Source: Amoeboaphelidium occidentale (lineage: Eukaryota). Taken from it: a stretch of 43,029 bases of DNA. The notes under the pieces are model-generated. The model had not been told where the DNA came from, did not search any database, and saw nothing but the letters and a program-made list of their open reading frames with translations. Below, one piece after another: positions 152-43,029 of the stretch. Made by a program: the position numbers and the translations under genes. Where the stretch lies: NCBI GenBank assembly GCA_023515795.1, contig JALGPX010000094.1, positions 1 to 43,029 on the forward strand, written 5' to 3'. Position 1 is the first letter of the stretch, and each line of letters starts with the position of its first letter.

Positions 152-1355
152 ATGCTCAAGGTAAAAACGCTTTTACGGCTCAGGCTGATATCTCGTAGCT
201 TAAGACACAGATTCCAAAGAGATTTTTGGCGACTCCATCTGCTTTCGAATTCAAGTTACCCGTTGACTTTTCCGCTCACATTTGTGAAAAGCCATCCACA
301 ACCGTTAGCGCAACACGAGATGAACTGATGGAGTACTACAAGCAAATGGTCACCATTCGTCGTATGGAAACTGCAGCTGATGGTCTATACAAATCAAAAC
401 TTATCAGAGGTTTCTGTCACTTGTGCACTGGTCAAGAAGCTGTCCCTGTTGGTATCGAAGCTGCATTAGAGAAAGAAGATTCCATAATTACTGCTTATAG
501 ATGCCACGGATACACTTACACCAGAGGTGGTACTGTTCTCCAGGTTCTTGCTGAACTTATGGGAAGAAAGGACGGTATCGCTAAGGGAAAGGGTGGTTCT
601 ATGCACATGTTTGCTCACGAATTCTACGGAGGTAACGGTATCGTTGGTGCGCAGGTTCCTGTTGGTGCAGGTGTTGCATTTGCTCACAAGTACCAAGACA
701 AGAAGAATGTTTGCCTTTCACTGTACGGTGATGGTGCAGCTAATCAAGGCCAAGTTTTTGAAGCTTATAACATGGCTAGGTTGTGGAAACTTCCTGTGAT
801 TTTCGTTTGCGAGAACAACATGTACGGTATGGGTACTTCAGCCGATAGATCGTCTGCTTCTACTGATTATTACAAGAGAGCTGGCTTCATTCCTGGTTTG
901 CGCGTTAACGGAATGGATGTTTTAGCTGTCCGCGAGGCAACTAAATTTGCAAAGAAGCACTGCGTTTCTGGAAATGGTCCTTTTGTTATGGAGATGGTAA
1001 CATACCGTTACGGAGGTCACTCTATGGTAAGTTTAAATTTGCAGAGTCGTTTAAATAGTTTTAGTCTGATCCAGGTACAACTTACAGAACCAGAGAAGAA
1101 ATTCAACACATGAGAAGCACGAATGATCCAATAACTGGTTTAAAGCAACGCATAATTGAAGCTGGTTTTGCTACCGAACAAGAACTCAAGCAAATCGACA
1201 AGGATGCTCGCGCTATGGTTGATCAAGCTGTTGTAGATGCAAAGAAGAGCCCAGAACCATCAATGGACGAGTTTTGGACTGACATTTACGTTAAAGGAAC
1301 AGAAGATGGTCCAATGCGAGGTTGCGATCCGCAGGAAGTTCATCATTTTGAATAA
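152..1355 (+). CDS. PDA1: Pyruvate dehydrogenase E1 alpha subunit, mitochondrial
   Basis: Motifs [24 protein letters not shown] and [13 protein letters not shown]. Introns 161-198 and 1027-1064 (38 nt, GT-AG) join the ORFs in frame. Confidence 0.97.
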
Positions 1356-1364
1356 ACGAGAACG

Positions 1365-3049
1365 ATGTTGGACAGATTCATTATATTTGGCCGTAACGGT
1401 GTTGTGTACTTTGATAAACAGTTTGTTAAACTCCGAGGAGACCCTTTAAGTGAACTAATTCTGGATGTGCTCTTGGAGAATCGTAACGCTTCAAGCTCAA
1501 CCACATCTGGACAGTACACACTCAAATGGACGTTTGACACATCTATGGACCTGGTCTTTGTTGTAATTCTATTTTCAGTTTGAGTAAATGTATTAGGCTG
1601 TTTACCAAAAGTCTTTGAAGTTGGCATACGTGGAAGATATGCTGAGTGAAGTGCAGCGAGTTTTTGCAGAAAGCACCGACGGCGAGTTGGACATTCACGG
1701 CTATCAGCAATTTGAGCCCACTTTTATAAGCATCTGGAAGCAGTGCGAAGGAGAATATTTACGTGTAAGTATCAAGAAAGTTTGTGTTGTATTTACTTGG
1801 TTAGAAGCCTGTTACGTCTGCCGCAAGCCCTGCAAGTACACTAGCTAAAACATCCAAAGAAGATACCAAGGCAGCACCGCAAGAATCGAAGGCTTCGAAA
1901 AAGAAGGGCAAAGAGATGCGCTCGTGGGGAGACAGAGCTGTGGATGCAACGGAGCTGGATTACTCAAACAGCACTGAACAGAATGGCGATCGCGACTTTG
2001 AGGCTCTTGTCGACAGGAAAGCTATGGAATCAATTAAAAAAGGGAGCTATGAAGTGCCGGAAATGGAAGATGTCCAAGTTAAGTCTCCATCATCAGCTTC
2101 GAGTAAATCTTGGATGTCTTATCTTAGTTCTTTTGCATCTGGCAAAGCTGTTACAGAGGAGAATCTTGAACCTGTAATAAGAAAAATGAAAGAGCAATTG
2201 GTTCAAAAAAACGTGGCAAAAGAAGTGACAGACACTATTTGTGAGTCTGTGGCCACTGCTCTTCTTGGAACTAGAATAGGAACGTTTGAGAGCTTGACTA
2301 ATGCAATCAAGAAGAACTTGGAGGAAGCATTACGTAGAGTTCTGACTCCTCGATCCTCATCTGATATATTGCGTGAAGTATACCAAGCTAAACGTGATGG
2401 TAATCCATACTCTATTTCATTCATTGGTGTTAATGGCGTTGGTAAAAGCACAAATCTGAGCAAAGTCTGCTTCTGGTTGCTACAAAACAAACTATCTGTT
2501 TTAATTGCAGCATGTGATACATTTCGTTCTGGTGCTGTTGAACAATTGAAGGTTCATATACGAAACTTGAAGAGGTTAGATGAAGGAGCTAGAGTCGAAA
2601 TATTCGAACAAGGATACGGCAAAGACGCTGCAACAATAGCCAAAGATGCAATACAATTTGCAAAACAGGAACGATTTGACGTTGTTCTAATTGATACAGC
2701 TGGAAGAATGCAGAATAATGAACCACTAATGCGCGCACTTGCAAAACTAGTTGCTGTGAATAGTCCAGACAAAGTTGTGTTTGTTGGGGAAGCATTGGTT
2801 GGTAATGAAGCTGTTGACCAATTGACAAAGTTTAACAAGGCATTACAGGACTACTCTGGTCAGCAGAATCCAAGACAGATTGATGGTATAATTCTGACAA
2901 AGTTCGACACTGTTGACGATAAAGTTGGGGCAGCTGTTACAATGTCTTTTGTTACCGGAAAGCCAATATTCTTTGTGGGAACAGGCCAGACTTACACTGA
3001 TCTGAAGAGGCTTAACATTACGCAAATAGTATCGACCTTGTTGTCGTGA
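1365..3049 (+). CDS. SRP101: Signal recognition particle receptor alpha subunit
   Basis: N-terminal longin-like SRX region (MLDRFIIF...). SRP GTPase motifs GVNGVGKSTNLSK, DTFRSGAVEQL, DTAGR and TKFD. Introns 1563-1596 and 1765-1804. Confidence 0.96.
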
Positions 3050-3106
3050 TGTTTCAAATAGAATTATTCTCTTAGGTGTTTTTGTTTACCAGTTTTTCAG
3101 AACGAT

Positions 3107-5642
3107 ATGACCTTGAAGCATCGCACCATCGAAAGTAAAGAAACATTCATAGAAGGCCTAAAGGAGACAAAAGCGAAATTCAAACAGTTTGGGAGTTACG
3201 AAGTGGATCTTAATGATGATCAGCTAAAGGCAGAACTGTTCGATTTTCAAGTAATCGGTTTGAAATGGTTACTTTTCCTGTTTTACAATAACTGGAATGG
3301 AATCCTTGCAGATGAGATGGTAATTTTATGTATCGCTCTTGGCTGAATTGAAGGGCTGTGGAAAAACTGTTCAGACTTTAGCATTCTTGTCGCAACTTTC
3401 TAAACGGCTTCATGCTGCAACATTCCTCGTGCTTTGTCCTTTGAGTGTCCTGAAGCAGTGGATTGAAGAAATTAAAGCTAAAGCTCCTCATCTGAATTAC
3501 ATTGAGTATACTGGAAGCAAGGAAGAGAGGCTGGTGAAGCATGATCAAATTATCAATCGCGTTAAATCGGGAGAATCCTTCATATTGTTGACCAATTACG
3601 AAATGATCTTAAAAGAAGAAGAGTTTCTGAAGGGCTTAAATTATTCTTATTTGGTAGTAGATGAAGGGCACCGTTTAAAGAATGATCAGTCGATACTGTA
3701 TCAGAAGTTACTTAATGAATTCAGCATCTCGAAGAAACTTATTCTTACGGGTACTCCAGTCCAAAACAATTTACGAGAGCTGAACAATTTACTTAGATTT
3801 CTTAATCCAGATTTATTTCCTGCAGACAATACTCTAATGGAAAAATGGTTCAGTGATTTATCAGAGTTGCAAGATCATATTTGCCCATTCATACTAAGGC
3901 GGGAGATAAGCGATACTTCCGTGAAACTTCCACTTTCAAGAGAAGTTGTAGTTTACACTAGACAGACAAAGTTACAGCAAGATCTTTACAAATCAATTCT
4001 TGCCAAAGAAGGTTTTGTTACAACCATGAAAGGAATGAATAATGTTCTCATGCAGCTTAGAAAATGTGTTGATCATCCATATTTGTTCCATGGAATTGAG
4101 CCTGAACCGTTCGAAATTGAAGATCATATATTTACAAGTTCAGGAAAATTGTGGCTACTGGATAAAGTTCTTCGAGAAATTATAAAGAAAGGACACAAAG
4201 TTTTGATCTTTTCGCAATTTACAACGATGTTGGATATTATCCAGGACTATTTAGACTATCGGGAATACTCTTATCAAAGATTAGATGGAAGTGTCAAAAG
4301 CGACGAAAGATTTCTTGCAGTAAACAAATTTGAATCAGAGCAAGATTGTAGTGTTTTCTTGCTTAGCACACGAGCAGGCGGTTTGGGTCTTAACTTGGTT
4401 GAAGCCGATACTGTGATTTTTTACGATACGGATTTCAATCCTCAAATGGACCTGCAAGCAGCAGCCAGGGTTTACAGAATTGGGCAAACGAAGAACTGTT
4501 TGATTATTCGCTTGATTGTTAAGAACTCTGTAGAAGAAATCATTCTGAAAAGGGCACAATTGAAGCGATTACTTAGTGAGAAGCTACTTCAAAAAGGAAA
4601 GTTTAAGGTTGTTGAGAATGAATCTAAAGAAGAAGACTTTAGTGTACTTCTAAAATTTGGTTTGAGCGAAATGGATAAACAAGGAGAACTAACTGATGAA
4701 GAACTTGAGCTTATCGTTTCAGCTTTTTTCGAAGATGAAAGCCTTTATTCTGGCGTCGAGAAAGAGCAACAGAAGCTGGAAGAGCTCACAGACGAAGATT
4801 TGGAAGATGTCTCAAACAACATTTATGAGTATCTTGGCCATGATTACACAAAAGATAGGCAATTGAAGGATGATGAAGCATTCAACTTTCTGTGCTCATC
4901 TGAGTATACGGATAATGCAGTTGTCGGAAAAAGAAAAACAATAGCCAGTTCTAGCAAAGAGATTGACTATGAAGCCTTGGAACGAGAACGAAAACGCAGA
5001 ATTATCGAACTCACAAAGAAGAAGGAGGAAAGAATGCACAAATTATGGGAAGAGCATGATTATAAATCAATGAGGCTACTCCCAAAGGAGTCAAGTTCAA
5101 GAACCAAAATTGACATTGATATGGATACTATTAATCAAAATTGGATTCTAGTTAGAGGCAGCATTCAAAATCCAGCGCAAGTTGATGAAACTTCACCAAA
5201 GAAACAAATCAATTATATTTGCTATCCATTCGATAATTCTGGTGAATGGTATCCCAAGGGGATTTTCGCATTAATTGATAGTTTGTCAGATGGAAACATT
5301 TCAAAGAATTATAAATTAATTCATGACATGAAAGATTTGAAAATAGGACAAGCATACCTTTTTCCGATAAATGATGAATTGAATTATGTTGGGCTTTGCT
5401 GCCAGAAGAGAACAAAGCATGGAGTGAGTGGAATCGACTTGACACATTTGGAGACAGCAATGAGAGACTTTGCAGAGAGCGATCAGCTTCATAATACTAA
5501 TGAGTCTGTTACAGTCCTGCATCTGCCGCGCTTTCCGGCATCGGACACAAGGGAATGGTATGTTATCGAGAGGCTATTCAAGAAATACTTTTGCTCAAAA
5601 AGCATTCCGGTTGTTCTTTACTACTACAAAAAGCGAGCATAG
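3107..5642 (+). CDS. CHD1L: SNF2-family chromatin remodeller with C-terminal macro domain (ALC1/CHD1L-like)
   Basis: GILADEM|GCGKT across intron 3320-3353, DEGHRLKN, LSTRAGGLGLNL and QAAARVYRIGQ. The C-terminal FDNSGEW..KGIF...LHLPRF...WYVIERL...VVLYYY matches the CHD1L macro domain pattern. Confidence 0.85.
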
Positions 5643-5808
5643 TTCCATCATTAGTGAGTATCATCATGAATTTCAGTATTTGATAGTACTTTATGAAAAT
5701 CATTTGGAACTGCTGCGATTTTACAAAATATGCTTCAATAGACTCTATGTGCAAAGTTCATTGAAAATCTTTTGGTCAAAAATCAAAAAAAATTTGCAAA
5801 ACGAAAGA

Positions 5809-6623
<815 letters not shown>

Positions 6624-6643
6624 TATAGATTTTATTTAAGAAT

Positions 6644-7276
6644 TCAGACTTTAAGTGTAACCTTTTTTAGTAGCAAATCCCTGGGATCAACTTTGCTTCC
6701 GTCGCAACAATCTGAGAGTGCAATATCAGATATTTTCATTAAGAGCTCTTGCGAGGAGTTTTGTGATACTTCAAAGTATTCAATTTTGTTTTCTTTGGCG
6801 TACTGCTCGCCCTGCTCTATTGTGACTTTACGTTCGAGATCTGTCTTGTTCCCAACCAAAACAATTCTTGCTCTCTGATTAACTTTCCTAACTTCATGTA
6901 GCCAGTATGGAATATTAAGTAAAGACTCCGGGTTACTCACTATAATATGAGATCAGGCTTTTTGTTATAGAGTATTACCATCGTAAATTAGACATGTAAC
7001 AGCAGCAGCTAATATGTATCTGGCCACAAAAGAGCGATATTCTGCATGCCCTTTGACATCCCATATATTCAAAACACAGTGATTTCCCTTTTTAGTAACA
7101 ATGTTTTTCTTGTGTACTTTAACAAGACCATAATTGTCAAGGTCTTGGTATTTATGATCAGATGGATTTCCTCCTTGATCATTTGAGTTACTTACTTTTG
7201 AGGTTATTAAAGAAGTCTTTCCAACTTTGTTATCACCGAGAAAAGCTACTGCGAATTCGAATACATGTTCAGCCAT
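6644..7276 (-). CDS. Divergent Rab/Ras-like small GTPase
   Basis: P-loop GDNKVGKTS, G3-like WDVKGH and G4 GNKTD. Intron 6940-6978 gives LIYD|VSNPES. No C-terminal prenylation motif. Confidence 0.75.
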
Positions 7277-7318
7277 TTTCAGTAGAAACTTTGGTCTCAA
7301 TTGTTTTCTGGTAACAAG

Positions 7319-7752
7319 ATGGAATCAGTTGAAGCCTCGCCCAGCCAGTCTAGCCCAACATCAGCACAAATAGATGTTCCGGAAAAGGGTAAAGACTAGC
7401 TATTACTCATATTTAAACTTTATGTTCAGTGGTACTACGGTTCAAAGCAACTGGTAATGCACCACAAATGAAACAGACAAAGTTCAAGATATCATCAAGT
7501 AATAAGTTCCAGGCAGTCATAGACTTTTTGAAAAAGCAATTAAATCTTGATACTTCTGAGAGTAAAGATAATTCAGGAGTTTCTCTGTTTATGTATGTGA
7601 ATTCATGCTTCACTCCAACACCTGATGAACTCGTGGCGAACTTGTATAGGGTAAAAATAATGATACTTTCATAATTAACTTAAATCTTTTAGTGCTTTTC
7701 GTCGGATGGGATGCTTTTGATAAATTACTCGTTACAAGAGGTTTACGGTTAA
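7319..7752 (+). CDS. ATG12: Ubiquitin-like autophagy protein Atg12
   Basis: VVLRFKATGNAP.MKQTKFKI and LFMYVNSCFTPTPDE. Ends INYSLQEVYG* with a terminal Gly. Introns 7389-7429 and 7651-7692. Confidence 0.93.
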
Positions 7753-15827: not shown

Positions 15828-16948
15828 TCAGAATAATCTGTTCCCAGTCGCCCAGTCCATTGAAGGGATCCAGAAAGCTAGATTTACACACGCTGAGGCC
15901 ATCATTAAATATCGCGGATTGAATGCGACACATGAAACAGCAGCTGGATGTCCAGTAAATTCCTTTACTTTCTTGCCACTTGCAACTTCCCATGCATGAA
16001 CTATGCCATCTTGAGAACCGCCAAAAATATACCTTCCATCAGGTGAAAATGATGCTTCAATGTTCAACTGTGTTTTGTTCTGGAAACCTGACAGCGTGTG
16101 TTTCAAAGTATAAGTGAAGGAATCTAAGACGTAAATCTTCTCTTGCCTAGTTGTTATCAGCATATCACAACCATTATTGCTGAATTTAATTCCAGACCAT
16201 TTCTCATCCTTGCCAAACATGTTTGGAGTGTTCGCGACAGGTATCATACCAAAAGGACCCTAAAATAAGGCAAACCAAGCTAAAATTACCTTTTCGAAAT
16301 TCCTTATATCATAAAGCCGAACAGAATTATTTTCCAGGCCAACTGCAAAGACCAAGCCTCTGTGATCAATAGCAACTGACGGGTATCCCTTGACATGAAC
16401 CAAACCACTACAATTATTCGATCTCAAATCCCATAGCCGCACACTATCATCAACAGCAGCAGATATGAAAGTATCATTTACAGGAGACATATCAAGTGAC
16501 ACAACCCTACAGCATAAATACCACAAAACCTTTACCATTGAATAATTACTTGTTCTTATGCCCTTTGAAGTATCTGAGATATCTGTTATCATGCAATGAG
16601 AGGTATCGTATCGTGTCTACATATTCCGGAAAGATGTTGAGTTTATCTCCATGCCTAGCGAGCTAACGTACCGTCCTCTTTAGTCGATGAATGTATAATA
16701 GAATTTGAAGTATGTGCGAATTTGCATAATTTTATGCCGTACTTCTTTGAATACAGAATCTTCTTCTCTTTGCCGAACCTGCAGTCGTAAAGGCCAATAG
16801 ATTCATCCTCTGATGCGGTGACCAAATATTCCCCGGTATCATCAAAGTCGATGCACGTTATGTGTTTCTTATTGTATTTAAAGACTTTTCCCACTGCCAT
16901 CGACTGAAGAACGTTCAGCGAGAGTTCTTGTTGAAGATTGTCATCCAT
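15828..16948 (-). CDS. SWD2: WD40 protein Swd2/WDR82 (COMPASS/CPF subunit)
   Basis: [41 protein letters not shown] and EASFSPDG. Three introns. Confidence 0.95.
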
Positions 16949-17022
16949 GTCGCAAAGATCAAGGCGAGAAATTGGTGCGAAATTACGGTTGTTTCGCTGT
17001 GCAAGTTCTGGTTTGTCTTAGA

Positions 17023-18415
17023 ATGAGTTGGGTTGCTGTATTACAAGACTATTTGAGTGATGCTAATCGACCAGCTGAGGCATATCATGATGGTTCTGCA
17101 ATAACAGCAAGACATGGAGTTTATGATCATTCTGCTACGCTTAACAAGGAACTCAACAAAACAAGAAACAATAATCATATACCAACATTCTTTGTAAAGA
17201 AAAGAGATAATGTTCTTGGTAAACAGTTGAGGAAGGCGTCCAAAGAACATTTTATTAGTCAAAAGAATGATATGGTGCTTTCGAATGAAGATCTTGATAT
17301 GGTTCTACAGCGACTTCAGGATAAAGCGACCAGGAAGGACGGTACAGAAAAGATCAGCTATGAAAAGTACGCAGAAGTTGGAGAAGGTCTGCCATTGAAG
17401 TTCAGGGATTTCTTTAAACCGTCCATCTTCCTGCGATTCAAGCATGATGATGAAGGTCGCATTGAAGTGATGCCATTGTTTAACTTCATCCTTAGATGTG
17501 CCTCTATTCAACAGGAACGAGTATGTATTGCTGCTTACGATCATTCTGGTGATGGCTACTTGACAGAGGATGACTTGGAGAGCTATCTTAATGAGTTGAT
17601 TCCTACATTTCCGCAACTAGATCAGATGGAACAAGGATTTCTAGCGTTTTATTTATGTGGAGCAACCAGGAAATTCTACTTTTTCCTGGACACTCAAAGA
17701 ACAGGTTCACATCTTAACGATTAAAACTAACAGCCTTAGGAAAGATTATGATCAAAGATATAATTCTGTCTCCGATTCTGTCAGAATTCTTTGAACTTCA
17801 GCAACAAGAACTTGATCCAGGACTCCTTTTATCAAACTGGTTCTCAATGTACTCTTCTTTAAAAGTTTATGGTAAGTACTTGAATATTTTTATTTCGTAA
17901 CTTTTAAGGGCAATATGTTGATTTAGATGTTGATCGCAATGGAATGTTAAGTTGTGATGAATTAGCGCAGTTCGCCAAAGGTCGTTACAATCGACTTATA
18001 ATTGAACGAGTATTTCAAGAATGTCAGACTTACTCAGCAGAAATCGATTATAAGAATTATCTGGACTTTGTTCTGGCAATTAATGACTTGCACAATCCTA
18101 GATCTTTATCGTATTTCTTCAAGCTTTTGGATTTAAGAGGTCAGGGATATCTTGATGATGCTGTTTTGATTTATTTTGTTAAAGAACTAGCTTCAAGGAT
18201 ACCAGCTATTCCATTCATTGTAAAAGATTTCCTGGTAAGCTTTCATTTCAGTGTTCATAACCATCTGTTTCTAGAACGAAGTGTTCGATATGGCCAACAC
18301 CAAACATGAAAGGATGATCACATATCAGAACCTCGTCAGCTGTGGGGTGGGCGGTTCAATTATAAGTTTATTGATCGATTCTCAAGCCTTTACAGCTAAC
18401 TTGAATAAAGACTAG
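17023..18415 (+). CDS. PPP2R3C: PP2A regulatory subunit B'' gamma (EF-hand protein)
   Basis: IPTFF, LRKASKEHF, YDHSGDGYLTEDDLESY, RKFYFFLD, NWFS, IERVFQECQTY..EIDYKNYLDFVLA and EVFDM. Three short introns. Confidence 0.88.
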
Positions 18416-38579: not shown

Positions 38580-41298
38580 ATGAATTTCGGAGAGCTTTTT
38601 GCAAAAACTTTATCTTCTGGTAAATTTCCGCAAGTGGAATCTTATTTTGTTAGTCCATAAGGAGCGCGAAGAAGCCACCCGCCAGTTGGAACAGGCAGCT
38701 AAAGATAATTTGGTAATTTATGGATGAGTCATTCTTACGTTAGGCTGTCTATGCTGTTTGTTTAGTCAGGGAGTTGGTGAATGAGAATCAGCAAGTTGAT
38801 TTAAGAATCGCAGCTGGTTTGGCACTTAAGAATATTCTTACTGCGAGGGATTACAGCACCAGGCAAGTTAAACAACAAGGCTGGTTACAATTGCCGTCAG
38901 ATGCCAGGCTTGAGGTGAAGACTGCGTCACTCCAGACTTTGGCCTCTTCTCAATTGAGGGCATCTATGGCTGCGTCACAGGTACGCTTTCCTGGATTGTG
39001 TTGCATTAATTGAAAAGGTTATTGCCGCCATTGCAGCTGCGGAACTTCCGAATAATCAGTGGCCAGATTTGATTAACTTTTTGTTGCAGAACGTCACATC
39101 AGGTGAGGCGTCTGTCAATTTGAAACAATCGACTTTACAGACAATTGGTTTTATTTGTGAGGAAATTCCTTTAGAAATTCTTGAGACTCAGGCGAATAGC
39201 ATTCTTACTGCGATTATTCAAGGAGCGCGCAAAGAAGAGCAAAGGTTATTTTTGCTGGATTTGTGTTTTATGTTTTAGTGTTCAAGTGCGTTTGGCTGCG
39301 ATTAAGGCTCTTTCGAACTCATTGGATTTCATAAGGAAAAATTTTGAGAATCAGGGTGAGCGCGATTTTATTATGCAGGTTGTTTGTGAAGCAACGGCGG
39401 CTGGAAACGATGAATTGGCTGTTGCAGCTTTCGAGTGTCTTGTAAAGATTATTTCAACTTATTATGATAAAATGGGATACTATATGGAGCAGGCATTGTT
39501 TCAAATGACTATTAATGGTATGAAGAATAAGAATCCGGATATTGTGCTTCAAGCTGTTGAATTCTGGTCTAGCATTTGTGAGACAGAAAAGCTTTGTTTG
39601 GACGAAATGGAAGAAGCCAAAGAATTGGGAGAAGAACCGAAAATGGTTAGTTTATATTTCGCCATCAAAGCTCTACCAGAAATCGTTCCAACTTTACTTT
39701 GGTTACTTACCAAACAGGACGAAGATGCAGAAGAAGACGACTGGAATCCTTCTATGGCAGCTGGTTTATGTTTGTCCTTGTTTGCTGAATGTGTCAGAGA
39801 CCAGATTGTTGGCCAAGTAGTTCCTTTTGTTGAACAAAATATCAGAAATCAAGATTGGAGATACAGAGAAGCCGCTGTTATGGCGTTCGGTTCTATTCTT
39901 GATGGTCCAAGTAGCGAAATGATTGAACCATTAGTTGCTCAAGCTATTGCAGTAATTATTGAAATGATGAAGGATCCTGTTGTTCATGTTAAAGATACTG
40001 CAGCTTGGACATTGAGCAGAATATGCGAACTTCATCCTACTTGTATCGCTGAATCTGTTATTGAAGTTTTAGTATCATCATTACTGTCTGGACTGGAAGA
40101 CTCAACCCGTGTCGCTTATCATTGTGCATGGGCTCTAAGTCATTTGTCTCTGCACCTTGGAGTTAATGGAGAAGAATTACCAACATGTGCATTATCCCGA
40201 TATTTCGATCACATTGTGTCAGGTTTATTGAATGCTGCCAATAGGAATGATGCAACAGAGTCTAGTCTCAGAACTTCTGCTTACGAATCTTTGTCTGTTG
40301 TTATCTCAAATTCAGCTCATGATACCTTGCCTGTTATAGAAAGGATCATTGTTGTTACAGTAGAAAGATTGGAGGCATCAATTGACCTGGAAACTCAATT
40401 ATTAAGTACAGAAGATAAGGTCCACAATGCAGATCTGCAGACCAGTCTGAGCGGTATCATTCAAAGTGTAAGCAAGAAAGTTGGTAGAAGTATCTTGGGA
40501 ATTGCTGACCGCATCATGCGTGCATTCATGGTAATTCTGCAATCTTCAAACAAAAGCCCGACTGTGATGGAAGATGTTTTCTTATCTATAGGAACTTTGA
40601 TATCTGTGTTGGAAGCTGATTTTAGTCGTTATACTCAAGCATTTGTTCCTTTTGTCTATTCTGCTTTACAGAAACACGAAGAGCATCAGCTTTGTAGCAT
40701 CGCTGTTGGAATAGTAGGCGATCTTGCTAGGGCGCTGAATGACGGAATTCTTCCATTCTGTAATGACTTAATGGCTCTTCTGTTACAGAATTTACAGAGC
40801 GGAGAAGTTCACCGTGATGTTAAACCTGCAATAGTTTCATGCTTTGGGGATATTTCATTGGCAATTCAATCTAAATTTTCTGCATATCTTCCGCATGTTA
40901 TGGGTGTTTTAGAACAAGCAGCAACAATAACTGCACCTGAAAATGATTACGATATGATGGACTATGTGGATATTTTGAGAGAAAGCATACTAGAAGCATA
41001 CACTGGTTTAGTCCAGGGTTTCAAAGCAGACAATAAGCAAAATTTAATGCTTCCTTATATTCAACAAATGGTTGTACTAATTAACATAATTCAACAAGAC
41101 GCAAATGCATCTGAGCCTGTTATTCGCGGCGCTGTAGGTTTAATCGGTGATCTGGTTTCATCATTTGGAACTGATTGCAAGAATTATTTACTAAACGAAT
41201 GGGTCGAAAAGCTATTGAAAGACGCAAGATCTGGACGCATGTCAGCATCTACCAAAGAGACAGCTAAGTGGGCTAAAGGCTTGCTCAAGCAGCTTTAA
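38580..41298 (+). CDS. KAP95: Importin beta-1
   Basis: RIAAGLALKN, ERDFIMQVVCEAT, QAVEFWSSICE, EDDWNPSMAAG.CL and DWRYREAAVMAFGSILDGP. Four short introns. Confidence 0.97.
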
Positions 41299-41380
41299 AT
41301 AAATGCGATCAAAGTCCTCGCGTCCGGACTTTTCCATAGCAAACATCGGACTTCGTCAATATATCGTTTGAAACATCGAC

Positions 41381-41424
41381 GAAATTTATCTGGAGGTAAA
41401 CAGTAATATCTTCAGATAAATTTC
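41381..41424 (+). repeat. 18-bp inverted repeat / stem-loop
   Basis: GAAATTTATCTGGAGGTA (41381-41398) pairs with TATCTTCAGATAAATTTC (41407-41424), including two G-U pairs, around an 8-nt loop. Confidence 0.85.
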
Positions 41425-41499
41425 CTTTTCAGTAAAGGGGCTATCTGTACACAAAAGGCAAATCAAAGTAGAATCTCTGAAAGACTTATGAGCGCAAAA

Positions 41500-42054
41500 C
41501 GTGATCATGAAACACCGCATCAGATTTCATCGCCTTATGACTCTTGGAGAAAGATATGATAATCACAGAGGTGAAATTTTACATTCGCGTCAGGTAGTGG
41601 AACTAGATCTATGAGCTCAGGTTTCATGGATTCAAATTAACTCATGATCCATGTTCAGTGTGTCTTGGATGTTGTTTGAACTCACAAAAGCGTTCACAGG
41701 ACGCTCTGAGTGATTCGAAACTCAAACAGAAAAAGATGTATGAAGTTCATGGTAAAGTGATACTGACAGAGAAAATGAAACCGGATGTGATCAAGTTGAA
41801 GAAAGAGTTGGTAAAGAAGAAGCATCGATAGCTTTCTGAAAATACTCCAAGAAGCTCTTATCCTCTTGACATAATCCGAGAATGAAGGAACTAGAATTCT
41901 GAAGTGCAAAGACTACAAGACCTCAACTAGGTAGAATCTCGTTGTTAAAAATGATGTTTCAGCAGCTCTTTACATGGCAAATATCGCGATTCAAGTGAAC
42001 GGAGAAAAAGGGACTAAAAATATGTCTTTTTCTTTGGTAAAGCTTTACTTGTAG
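41500..42054 (+). pseudogene. Degraded relic resembling a Fanzor/TnpB C-terminus (Zn finger and RuvC-III)
   Basis: Stop-riddled frames contain, in order, RIRFHRLM, LRFHGFKL..CSVCLGC and ILKCKDYKT..*NLVVKNDVSAALYMANIA (compare the RD.NAA.N[IM] motif). Confidence 0.45.
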
Positions 42055-42145
42055 TGTACCATACAAAACAAGACCTTGAACCGAAATAAAAGAATAGAAT
42101 TTTTACAATTTTCGTGATCGGTTCAAATCCTTTTCATATCAGAAT

Positions 42146-43029
42146 ATGAAAAAGAAACGCAAACTACCTGATAAAGGTGACGAAGATTATGATCCTGATG
42201 TTGAGGATGATGTTGATTCCGAGCCCATGGGGGAACCTGAAGAGGAAGAGGAGGAAGATATGACCCCTATCCCAATGACGTCAATTGTAACTAGAAAGAC
42301 TGGACTTAGCTCCTTGATCCCGAATGAAATCCTGAGGACAAAGATAAGAGACATGGTTGATACAATGAATTTTATTCGCTATCATGGTTCCCGCCTTCTT
42401 AATCTCTATGTTCTGCAGATGTGCTCAGAACGGCGGGATTTGGGGTTGTTGACCTGTGGATTTGGAGGCAGTCTAAGGCACTTCTTTGTGGCAGTCTGTG
42501 ATAATTCTGCCAACATCCGTACCACTAGTCTTGATGAAGATGTTGCCCCTCTGGCTGAAATTTTTAGAAATAGGGCTTTTGAATCTGGTATAGAGTTTTC
42601 TTTGAATACTGGCATATCCAGCACTTTGAATAGTATGGTGGCGTCTTATGAGACCAATTTAATGAATTATATTACAACTACAACTGTTGGTAGAGTACGG
42701 AGGTGGTTAATGCACTTGTTGGAACTGGAATATCCGGATTGTTTCAAAGTCAAAAAACGGAGTACATCCGGGGCCAATTACTGTATTTCATCGTTGAGTG
42801 CACTTTTGGAAGAGAATAATGAGTTGCCTGAGCTTCCAGATATTCTAGAAAAGTTTGCAAAGAAACATGACAGGGCAAGAATCATGAGGGCTCTTAGAAC
42901 AGTGCATAGAATTTTAGTGGCCGAAACAGTAGAGAAAAAACTTTTTTTAGAACAGGAATTTTTGAAGGAATACTGGTACAAGTTTTTTTACCTACAGTAT
43001 CACATTCTTGAACACTTTACTAAGTACTC
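42146..43029 (+). CDS. Fanzor1-like RNA-guided endonuclease, N-terminal part (runs off the window)
   Basis: 294 uninterrupted codons with no stop before the window end. MKKKRK and an acidic tract, then TRKTGLSSLIPNEILRTKIRDMVDTMNFIRYHGSRLLNLYVL, STLNSMVASYETNLMNYITTTTVGRVRRWL and LKEYWYKFFYLQYHILE, resembling the Fanzor1 WED/REC region. RuvC is not in the window. Confidence 0.72.
   Translation, partial: MKKKRKLPDKGDEDYDPDVEDDVDSEPMGEPEEEEEEDMTPIPMTSIVTRKTGLSSLIPNEILRTKIRDMVDTMNFIRYHGSRLLNLYVLQMCSERRDLGLLTCGFGGSLRHFFVAVCDNSANIRTTSLDEDVAPLAEIFRNRAFESGIEFSLNTGISSTLNSMVASYETNLMNYITTTTVGRVRRWLMHLLELEYPDCFKVKKRSTSGANYCISSLSALLEENNELPELPDILEKFAKKHDRARIMRALRTVHRILVAETVEKKLFLEQEFLKEYWYKFFYLQYHILEHFTKY

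Follow-up and report, generated by a model that had tools for sequence, protein, structure and literature searches.

The N-terminal half of a Fanzor1 gene in a multi-copy, likely mobile element of Amoeboaphelidium occidentale

An open reading frame (ORF) that runs off the end of contig JALGPX010000094.1 from the aphelid Amoeboaphelidium occidentale raises the question of whether it encodes a eukaryotic RNA-guided nuclease and, if so, what kind of element carries it and whether this copy is intact. Aphelids are parasites of algae, and the role of Fanzors for their transposons is mostly inferred from bacterial TnpB. We analyzed the whole stretch of 43,029 nucleotides (here, the window). The reading at which we arrive, and which as a whole we consider highly probable, is that of the N-terminal half of a Fanzor1 gene in a multi-copy, likely mobile element, whose protein of about 680 residues is likely an RNA-guided homing nuclease. 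The fold and family of the protein, and the multi-copy state and left boundary of the element, were established from the present data.

The frame starts at an ATG at 42146 and stays open for 294 codons up to 43027, at the window end (882 bp with no stops or frameshifts). An earlier note, made from the sequence alone, had placed an ORF at this edge and remarked that the ORF track overlooked it. Both statements hold; the track missed the frame because it is open-ended and is listed solely as "3open". The note also stressed that the ORF is intronless in a genome where host genes have introns. The frame is indeed open over 294 codons, and host genes in the window do carry short introns, but such a length is not unusual here: 11 stop-to-stop ORFs in the window reach at least 294 codons, 10 of them host ORFs. 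The missing introns therefore carry little weight. The full-length protein is expected to have ~678 residues, with ~384 codons (57%) beyond the window, and the visible part divides as follows.

42146-42286, plus strand: N-terminal disordered arm of the Fanzor (aa 1-47), with KKKRK and an acidic tract, from the sequence and from pLDDT <50 for aa 1-50.
42287-43029, plus strand: WED-I and REC domain of the Fanzor1 (aa 48-294), running off the window end, from structural alignment with SpuFz1 and 78-82% identity to A. occidentale proteins.

The NLS-like start recognized in the note, KKKRK, occupies aa 2-6 with the acidic tract directly after it, and judging from its sequence it is likely an NLS. 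All three sequence blocks that the note had given as typical of Fanzor1 were found: RKTG..LIPNE..HGSRLL at aa 50-85, N162..YETNL..RRW at aa 162-187, and KEYWYKFF at aa 274-281. The first two match SpuFz1 in a profile alignment, and the third matches the equivalent aromatic helix of GtFz1.

As a single query, the window protein (294 aa; P0001) had no match in Pfam or among PDB sequences, and its exact sequence is absent from a collection of 15 billion proteins. A search for longer proteins scored two of 3,607 candidates, both from A. occidentale and both aligned over 99-100% of the query: P0002 (82% identity) and P0003, which is KAI3661251.1 (78% identity). (The other P labels denote related proteins.) Sixteen matches came from an unindexed search across 1.84 billion representatives, and seven of the eight that were looked up are A. 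occidentale gene models. The first 472 residues of P0002 include a host-like 470-residue region, which has no Pfam match and is fused to a Fanzor N-terminal half; this model was likely produced by gene prediction across a further insertion locus.

KAI3661251.1 continues past the point at which the window ends, with STDG, VDPG, EHRTS, two CxxC pairs and NRD, and it matches PF07282 (E 3.5e-8). This 78%-identical protein thus holds the DPG, the shifted glutamate, the C4 zinc finger and the RD, whose equivalents in the window copy would lie beyond 43029. The same applies to the TDG of WED-II, which is present in KAI3661251.1 (at 371 and 448) and in P0006 and is replaced by TDE in P0004. DPG and the shifted glutamate are fingerprints of Fanzors, and TDG of Fanzor1 (PMC10711439, in part). 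Every downstream motif predicted in the note occurs in close relatives.

Profiles built from the family identify the protein further. A profile of nine sequences matched SpuFz1 (5e-25), GtFz1 (8e-20) and PpFz1 (1e-17), then Fanzor2 (1e-10) and others at 1e-6 or weaker; with 14 sequences, the top two were identical (SpuFz1 2e-28, GtFz1 1.5e-20). When modelled with AlphaFold (pLDDT 79.9), the window protein is disordered over aa 1-50 and has a complete fold across aa 51-294. In the comparison with Fanzor1 structures that the note had proposed, Foldseek ranks 1-6 were all Fanzor1 chains (E 0.3-0.9, probability 0.72-0.98), with no match at E 0.001. GtFz1 came top of 48,161 chains (Z 10.0, rmsd 3.1, 177 residues aligned; next chain 7.0), and re-alignment of 95 Foldseek-preselected chains placed the seven Fanzor1 entries at ranks 1-7 (Z 9.1-11.6; next 6.3), with a Z of 10-12 falling under the level rated safe for helical bundles. 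In the overlay on SpuFz1, aa 52-294 lie on residues 22/26-256 (Z 11.0-11.6, rmsd 3.1-4.8, 196-214 residues).

That the protein is some other helical protein with a chance likeness to a REC domain is hardly credible and in effect refuted: the missing Pfam and PDB sequence matches of P0001 and the best Foldseek E of just 0.3 would fit such a protein, but its whole ORF is 78% identical to a protein bearing the complete Fanzor motif set, and the family profiles and structural rankings, with Fanzor1 entries at ranks 1-7, agree. Fanzor2 or IS607 membership is not supported, as profiles and structural ranks place the protein nearer to Fanzor1; by these rankings, which are not a tree, the family is nearer to Fanzor1 than to Fanzor2, TnpB or Cas12f. 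The Fanzor1 identity put forward in the note is thus supported by profile searches and by fold, and the ORF covers the N-terminal half of a Fanzor1 gene, namely WED-I and REC.

The next question is where this gene resides. Its upstream neighbor is a host gene.

39175-41298, plus strand: importin-beta (host), last long ORF, from Pfam TPR_IMB1 (E 1e-137) and single-copy depth of 105-111 in run X1.

Seventeen of the 18 long window ORFs that were scanned are eukaryotic housekeeping genes by Pfam, and with such neighbors a viral context or insert is ruled out. The remaining ORF (16882-17724) is the sole one of the 18 without a Pfam match at 1e-5, and its C-terminal part appears EF-hand-like by eye.

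To map the element, contigs of public runs were aligned to the window. Summed contig depth, which is no copy number, rises in X1 from 105-111 over importin-beta to 860-7,460 beginning with the bin that contains 41298, and the same step is seen in X3, X4 and X5. Contigs with other flanks begin to match the window at 41297/41298 (at least seven in X1 and at least six in X3), and two X1 contigs of 27.6 and 34.6 kb, both at single-copy depth, join the element at this point from other flanks. In X14, the one RNA run examined, three partial records fall on the window, too few to count as evidence in either direction. The small-share runs X2 and X6-X17 were set aside where habitat is concerned. The depth step and the alternative flanks together place the left end of the element at the importin-beta stop, ~850 bp before the ATG, a start that went unnoticed in the earlier note. 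The Fanzor gene lies in a multi-copy eukaryotic element, which is likely mobile. The TAA stop of importin-beta (41296-41298) touches this left end. The boundary (41296-41303) overlaps both the stop and an AATAAA, so the insertion displaced the 3' region of importin-beta.

Two further contigs locate a second breakpoint. Record 24 of X5 (a 34-kb contig) and record 9 of X3 match the host gene up to 41310 and then diverge from the window. They are likely alleles without the element, that is, a presence/absence polymorphism, and they delimit a short stretch.

41298-41310, no strand: 13-bp boundary stretch, an element terminus or a target/direct repeat, from the starts of alternative flanks and from X5 record 24 and X3 record 9.

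The element-free-looking alleles retain the same 13 bp that are found at filled sites elsewhere, and the first hairpin of the element begins immediately after them. This leaves two readings: a target or direct repeat of 13 bp, or scars in the X5 and X3 alleles. A poly(A) signal was rejected as the explanation: AATAAA overlaps the stop at none of 13 other ORF ends checked, several of which are exon ends, and lies farther downstream at one. A TTAA duplication of the piggyBac or Kolobok type is ruled out, in that the sequence common to other copies starts no earlier than 41297/41298. Allowing up to two mismatches, the 13-mer is found three times in the window against 1.8 expected. A 16-base left-end pattern found four viral loci, with similarity ending at 16-17 bases.

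The 850 bp between this boundary and the gene contain several structures of their own.

41311-41332, no strand: terminal hairpin with a 7-bp stem and an 8-nt loop, directly after the 13-bp stretch, from minimum-energy and centroid DNA folds.
41381-41424, no strand: subterminal hairpin with 18-nt arms, 89% complementary, from an inverted-repeat search and folds.
41446-41644, no strand: block of ~200 bp missing from a subfamily of other copies, from joints of 41424-41447 to 41645-41654 in X1, X3, X4 and X5.
41902-42051, plus strand: putative decayed remnant of the C-terminal end (RuvC-III region) of another, distinct Fanzor-like gene, with one in-frame TAG, from profile matches.

The 148 bases from 41298 to 41445 fold better than all of 200 shuffles (z -3.8), and two neighboring stretches do not stand out (z +0.8 and +0.4). 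The 199-bp block begins with TG and ends with CA, resembling a small solo LTR; a clean insertion is made less likely by the three letters that other copies have between the joints. Many other copies switch to a different sequence after 41987-41991, where depth drops two- to four-fold; the summed depth of the left 700 bp is 2-4 times that of the ORF. The left arm is therefore common to elements with other cargo or none, and such sharing across cargoes has been reported for several Fanzor1 families (PMC3627910, in part).

The putative second Fanzor was first picked by eye and then scored. Among 864 six-frame chunks of the window, 41902-42051 was the best for two overlapping profiles made from 10 proteins (E 0.004 and 0.005), and none of 300 shuffles reached its score; with a broader 74-sequence profile, 67 of 300 did, and with a first profile of six sequences the score stayed within noise. 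By hhalign, its E is 0.003 at a probability of 9.7%. No homologue was found among 59 candidates, and four motifs of this region had no match in the available part of the PMC10711439 supplement. All aligned copies in X4 and X5 have C at 41932, which shows that the family is not fixed for the in-frame TAG. From these scores, we consider it reasonably probable that this region is a relic of a second Fanzor. Just before it, in another frame, is a 74-codon open stretch (41607-41830, plus strand) with a CxxC and a lysine-rich end, which has no family match. A perfect 9-bp inverted repeat (42076-42127) lies just upstream of the Fanzor ATG, in a region that folds no better than shuffles. An omegaRNA-like fold between relic and ATG was also sought and rejected (z -0.75 and -1.6 for 42051-42146; z -1.5 for 41990-42146), and Rfam gave one chance-level match on 41250-43029. 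In the three plus-strand frames of 41271-42147, read with X at stops, no transposase, RepHel or recombinase (including the serine recombinase TnpA) was matched in Pfam, PHROG or NCBIfam. With no transposase recognized in these frames of the left 850 bp, the element was likely mobilized in trans.

Whether the window copy itself is intact is a separate matter. The earlier note described it as apparently intact, which as stated goes too far: the window stops short of the omegaRNA and of 57% of the expected protein, and several of the sister models are fragmentary. Intactness seems to us somewhat doubtful, a judgment that combines the open 882 bp, the differences from the majority, the sister fragments and the share of full-length SpuFz1 loci. 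Slightly favored is a copy of the same family that is dead, either truncated, interrupted or frameshifted after 43029, and carried as a passive passenger of the repeat. The ~384 unseen codons leave room for this, as 4.6% of random substitutions in the ORF create a stop, and sister models P0002, P0004, P0005 and P0018 end before a complete RuvC. The left part of the element is decayed (the relic with stops), and just 19 of 42 SpuFz1 loci are full length (PMC10432273, in part). Moreover, at least nine sites in the 882 bp differ from most or all X1 copies. Six of the nine listed replace an amino acid, and four of these replacements (aa 55, 109, 140 and 152) depart from residues common to KAI3661251.1 and P0005. 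These differences look like drift after insertion or a mosaic at the repeat edge; because the window ends inside the repeat, several copies may be mixed in its final bases. Against a dead copy stand the 882 bp without a stop or frameshift, the fold that is complete across aa 51-294, and the C-terminal motifs that are intact in family member KAI3661251.1. A dead copy would concern this copy alone and is therefore compatible with the mechanism proposed for the family.

The class of the carrier is a matter of competing possibilities. Single gene models contain repeated Fanzor segments: P0031 has one three times, P0029, P0017, P0020 and P0003 also show repeats, and P0011 alternates two families. 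These models hint at tandem or head-to-tail and two-Fanzor arrangements, or at assembly artefacts.

The carrier may, somewhat short of an even chance, be a hairpin-ended element without TIRs, either Helitron2-like (HUH) or recombinase-type, with a degenerate ~13-bp target and tandem arrays. The element would then truly end at 41311, with the 3' portion of the 13 bp serving as the TAM. A hairpin has its first base precisely at 41311, which is 13 nt away from the shared boundary. The terminal and subterminal hairpins (41311-41332 and 41381-41424) are a trait of Helitron2, which is not Helitron-specific. Further points in favor are the left 700 bp at 2-4 times ORF depth with the switch after 41987-41991, which recall the one-end excess of CRe-1 to 3 (PMC3627910, in part), and the A. 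occidentale models P0031, P0029, P0017, P0003 and P0011, whose repeated Fanzor pieces appear as if spliced from head-to-tail copies. However, summed depth is no copy number, the repeated models may be assembly artefacts, the end at 41311 derives from two contig records compared through 41310, and neither RepHel nor recombinase was recognized in the three plus-strand frames of 41271-42147.

Also tentative, and rated lower, is a cut-and-paste TIR element like Spu-1, in which AATA (41298-41301) would combine the TAM with a TA duplication and the TIR would follow. The X3/X5 allele would then be an excision or deletion scar that retains 13 bp. Among the contigs listed, every alternative flank ends at 41297/41298, and SpuFz1 loci follow the same logic, with CA plus IR (PMC10432273, in part). 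In the protein, an asparagine kept at N162 (N133 of SpuFz1), together with Q129/Q130 replaced by S158/S159, would suit a TAM that has changed but keeps its final TA. But two samples, each from a different study, share the break at 41310, for which an ancestral empty site is the simpler explanation; an abundance of hairpins is no hallmark of TIR elements; and the window holds the left end alone, which makes any TIR/TSD pairing hypothetical. Some other carrier class is unlikely, and it seems improbable that all of the less ordinary traits apply together, that is, that the carrier is an undescribed TIR-less, hairpin-ended type with a ~13-bp degenerate target, a 700-bp arm serving several cargoes, two Fanzors in series and head-to-tail arrays.

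A Fanzor1 homing nuclease would operate along the following lines. In described systems, the nuclease is directed to empty alleles next to a TAM by an omegaRNA that covers the right end and ~15 bases of flank, after which the element is copied back by repair (PMC10432273 and PMC13565253, both in part). For the A. occidentale family, the catalytic set is taken from relatives: a RuvC with DPG, the shifted E and RD, as well as a zinc finger, would follow downstream of the window. Homing is taken from the literature. An omegaRNA would, as in known Fanzor1 biology, be transcribed from the right end of the element into the flank. The nuclease-RNA complex would enter the nucleus, read an AT-rich TAM at the left junction and cut empty or excised alleles at its own insertion sites, and repair off the filled allele would restore the element. 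In SpuFz1, Q129, Q130 and N133 contact the TAM, with N133 touching two thymines (PMC10432273, in part). Q129 and Q130 are both replaced by serine in the window protein, according to an alignment drawn from a weakly scoring profile segment, so its TAM likely differs from the CATA of SpuFz1.

Some novelty was implied by the earlier note, which had called the nuclease uncharacterised, but the family is already catalogued. KAI3661251.1 appears in Tables S2 and S3 (curated) of PMC10711439, whose supplement names Amoeboaphelidium 112 times; KAI3656034.1 and KAI3661472.1, of the same family, are in Table S2 (in part). The curated set was selected for structurally intact models, and in the available part of this source the entry for KAI3661251.1 has an empty notes cell, with no transposon, TAM or omegaRNA. 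Our literature search found no biochemical study of an aphelid Fanzor, and in full texts no paper pairing Fanzor with Amoeboaphelidium or an aphelid; the genus is absent from the main texts of PMC10432273 and PMC10530073 in the parts available. As far as the literature was searched, the family seems to be listed, but its element, TAM and RNA seem to be without description in main texts.

Beyond these models, the aphelid lineage holds several diverged Fanzor1 families. A scan gave at least 79 loci of distant Fanzor/TnpB genes. Two of the 79 listed match P0001 weakly, and none of them has DNA similarity to the element. A metagenome contig, L001 (GC 52%), has a full-length, intronless, Fanzor1-like ORF of 710 codons (4044-6173); it is the closest locus with DNA among the matches listed (32% to P0006, E 2e-6 to P0001). 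None of 578 pattern matches to P0001 in metagenome contigs, and none of 61 to KAI3661251.1 in viral contigs, was confirmed.

The protein is thus one more copy in a catalogued family, of modest interest as a candidate editor with a TAM likely unlike that of SpuFz1. The 850 bp before the gene are less ordinary, and the carrier is the part worth following. If it is site-specific or rolling-circle, forms arrays and holds more than one Fanzor, it would offer a compact-genome system in which to test the role of Fanzors for transposons. In arrays, each copy would take its guide from the left end of the copy that follows. The nuclease would thereby target family sites that are already filled, and might drive array expansion or collapse instead of simple restorative homing.

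Comparison with known systems places the element as follows. The closest protein, KAI3661251.1, has the same N-terminal arm and belongs to the same family, with 78% identity over all 294 aa; compared with the window ORF, two stretches are deleted and 77 residues duplicated in its gene model. SpuFz1 (Spu-1 of Spizellomyces punctatus; PDB 8gkh and 9ceu) is the best structural and profile match at ~14% identity, and its TAM-contacting N133 corresponds to N162, whereas Q129/Q130 correspond to S158/S159. Spu-1 is ~2.1 kb long with 30-33-bp TIRs and one ORF; the ATG of the window element, in contrast, is preceded by ~850 bp that contain hairpins and possibly the relic of a second Fanzor. GtFz1 and PpFz1 (PDB 9cer and 9cf0) share the REC architecture (Z 9.1-10.0) at 12-15% identity and come from different hosts. 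The MCi-2, Sola2 and IS4 Fanzor chimeras (PMC3627910, in part) resemble the window element family in having one common and one variable arm, and MCi-2, which lacks TIRs, has duplications of 11-12 bp whose fixed part is AT-rich; unlike these chimeras, the window element has no recognizable transposase remnant. Finally, the Helitron2 Fanzor elements CRe-1, 2 and 3 of Chlamydomonas (PMC3627910, in part) are likewise non-autonomous Fanzor1 carriers with a near-terminal hairpin and an excess of one end, but their Fanzors have introns and the excess end is 3', whereas that of the window element is 5' of the gene.
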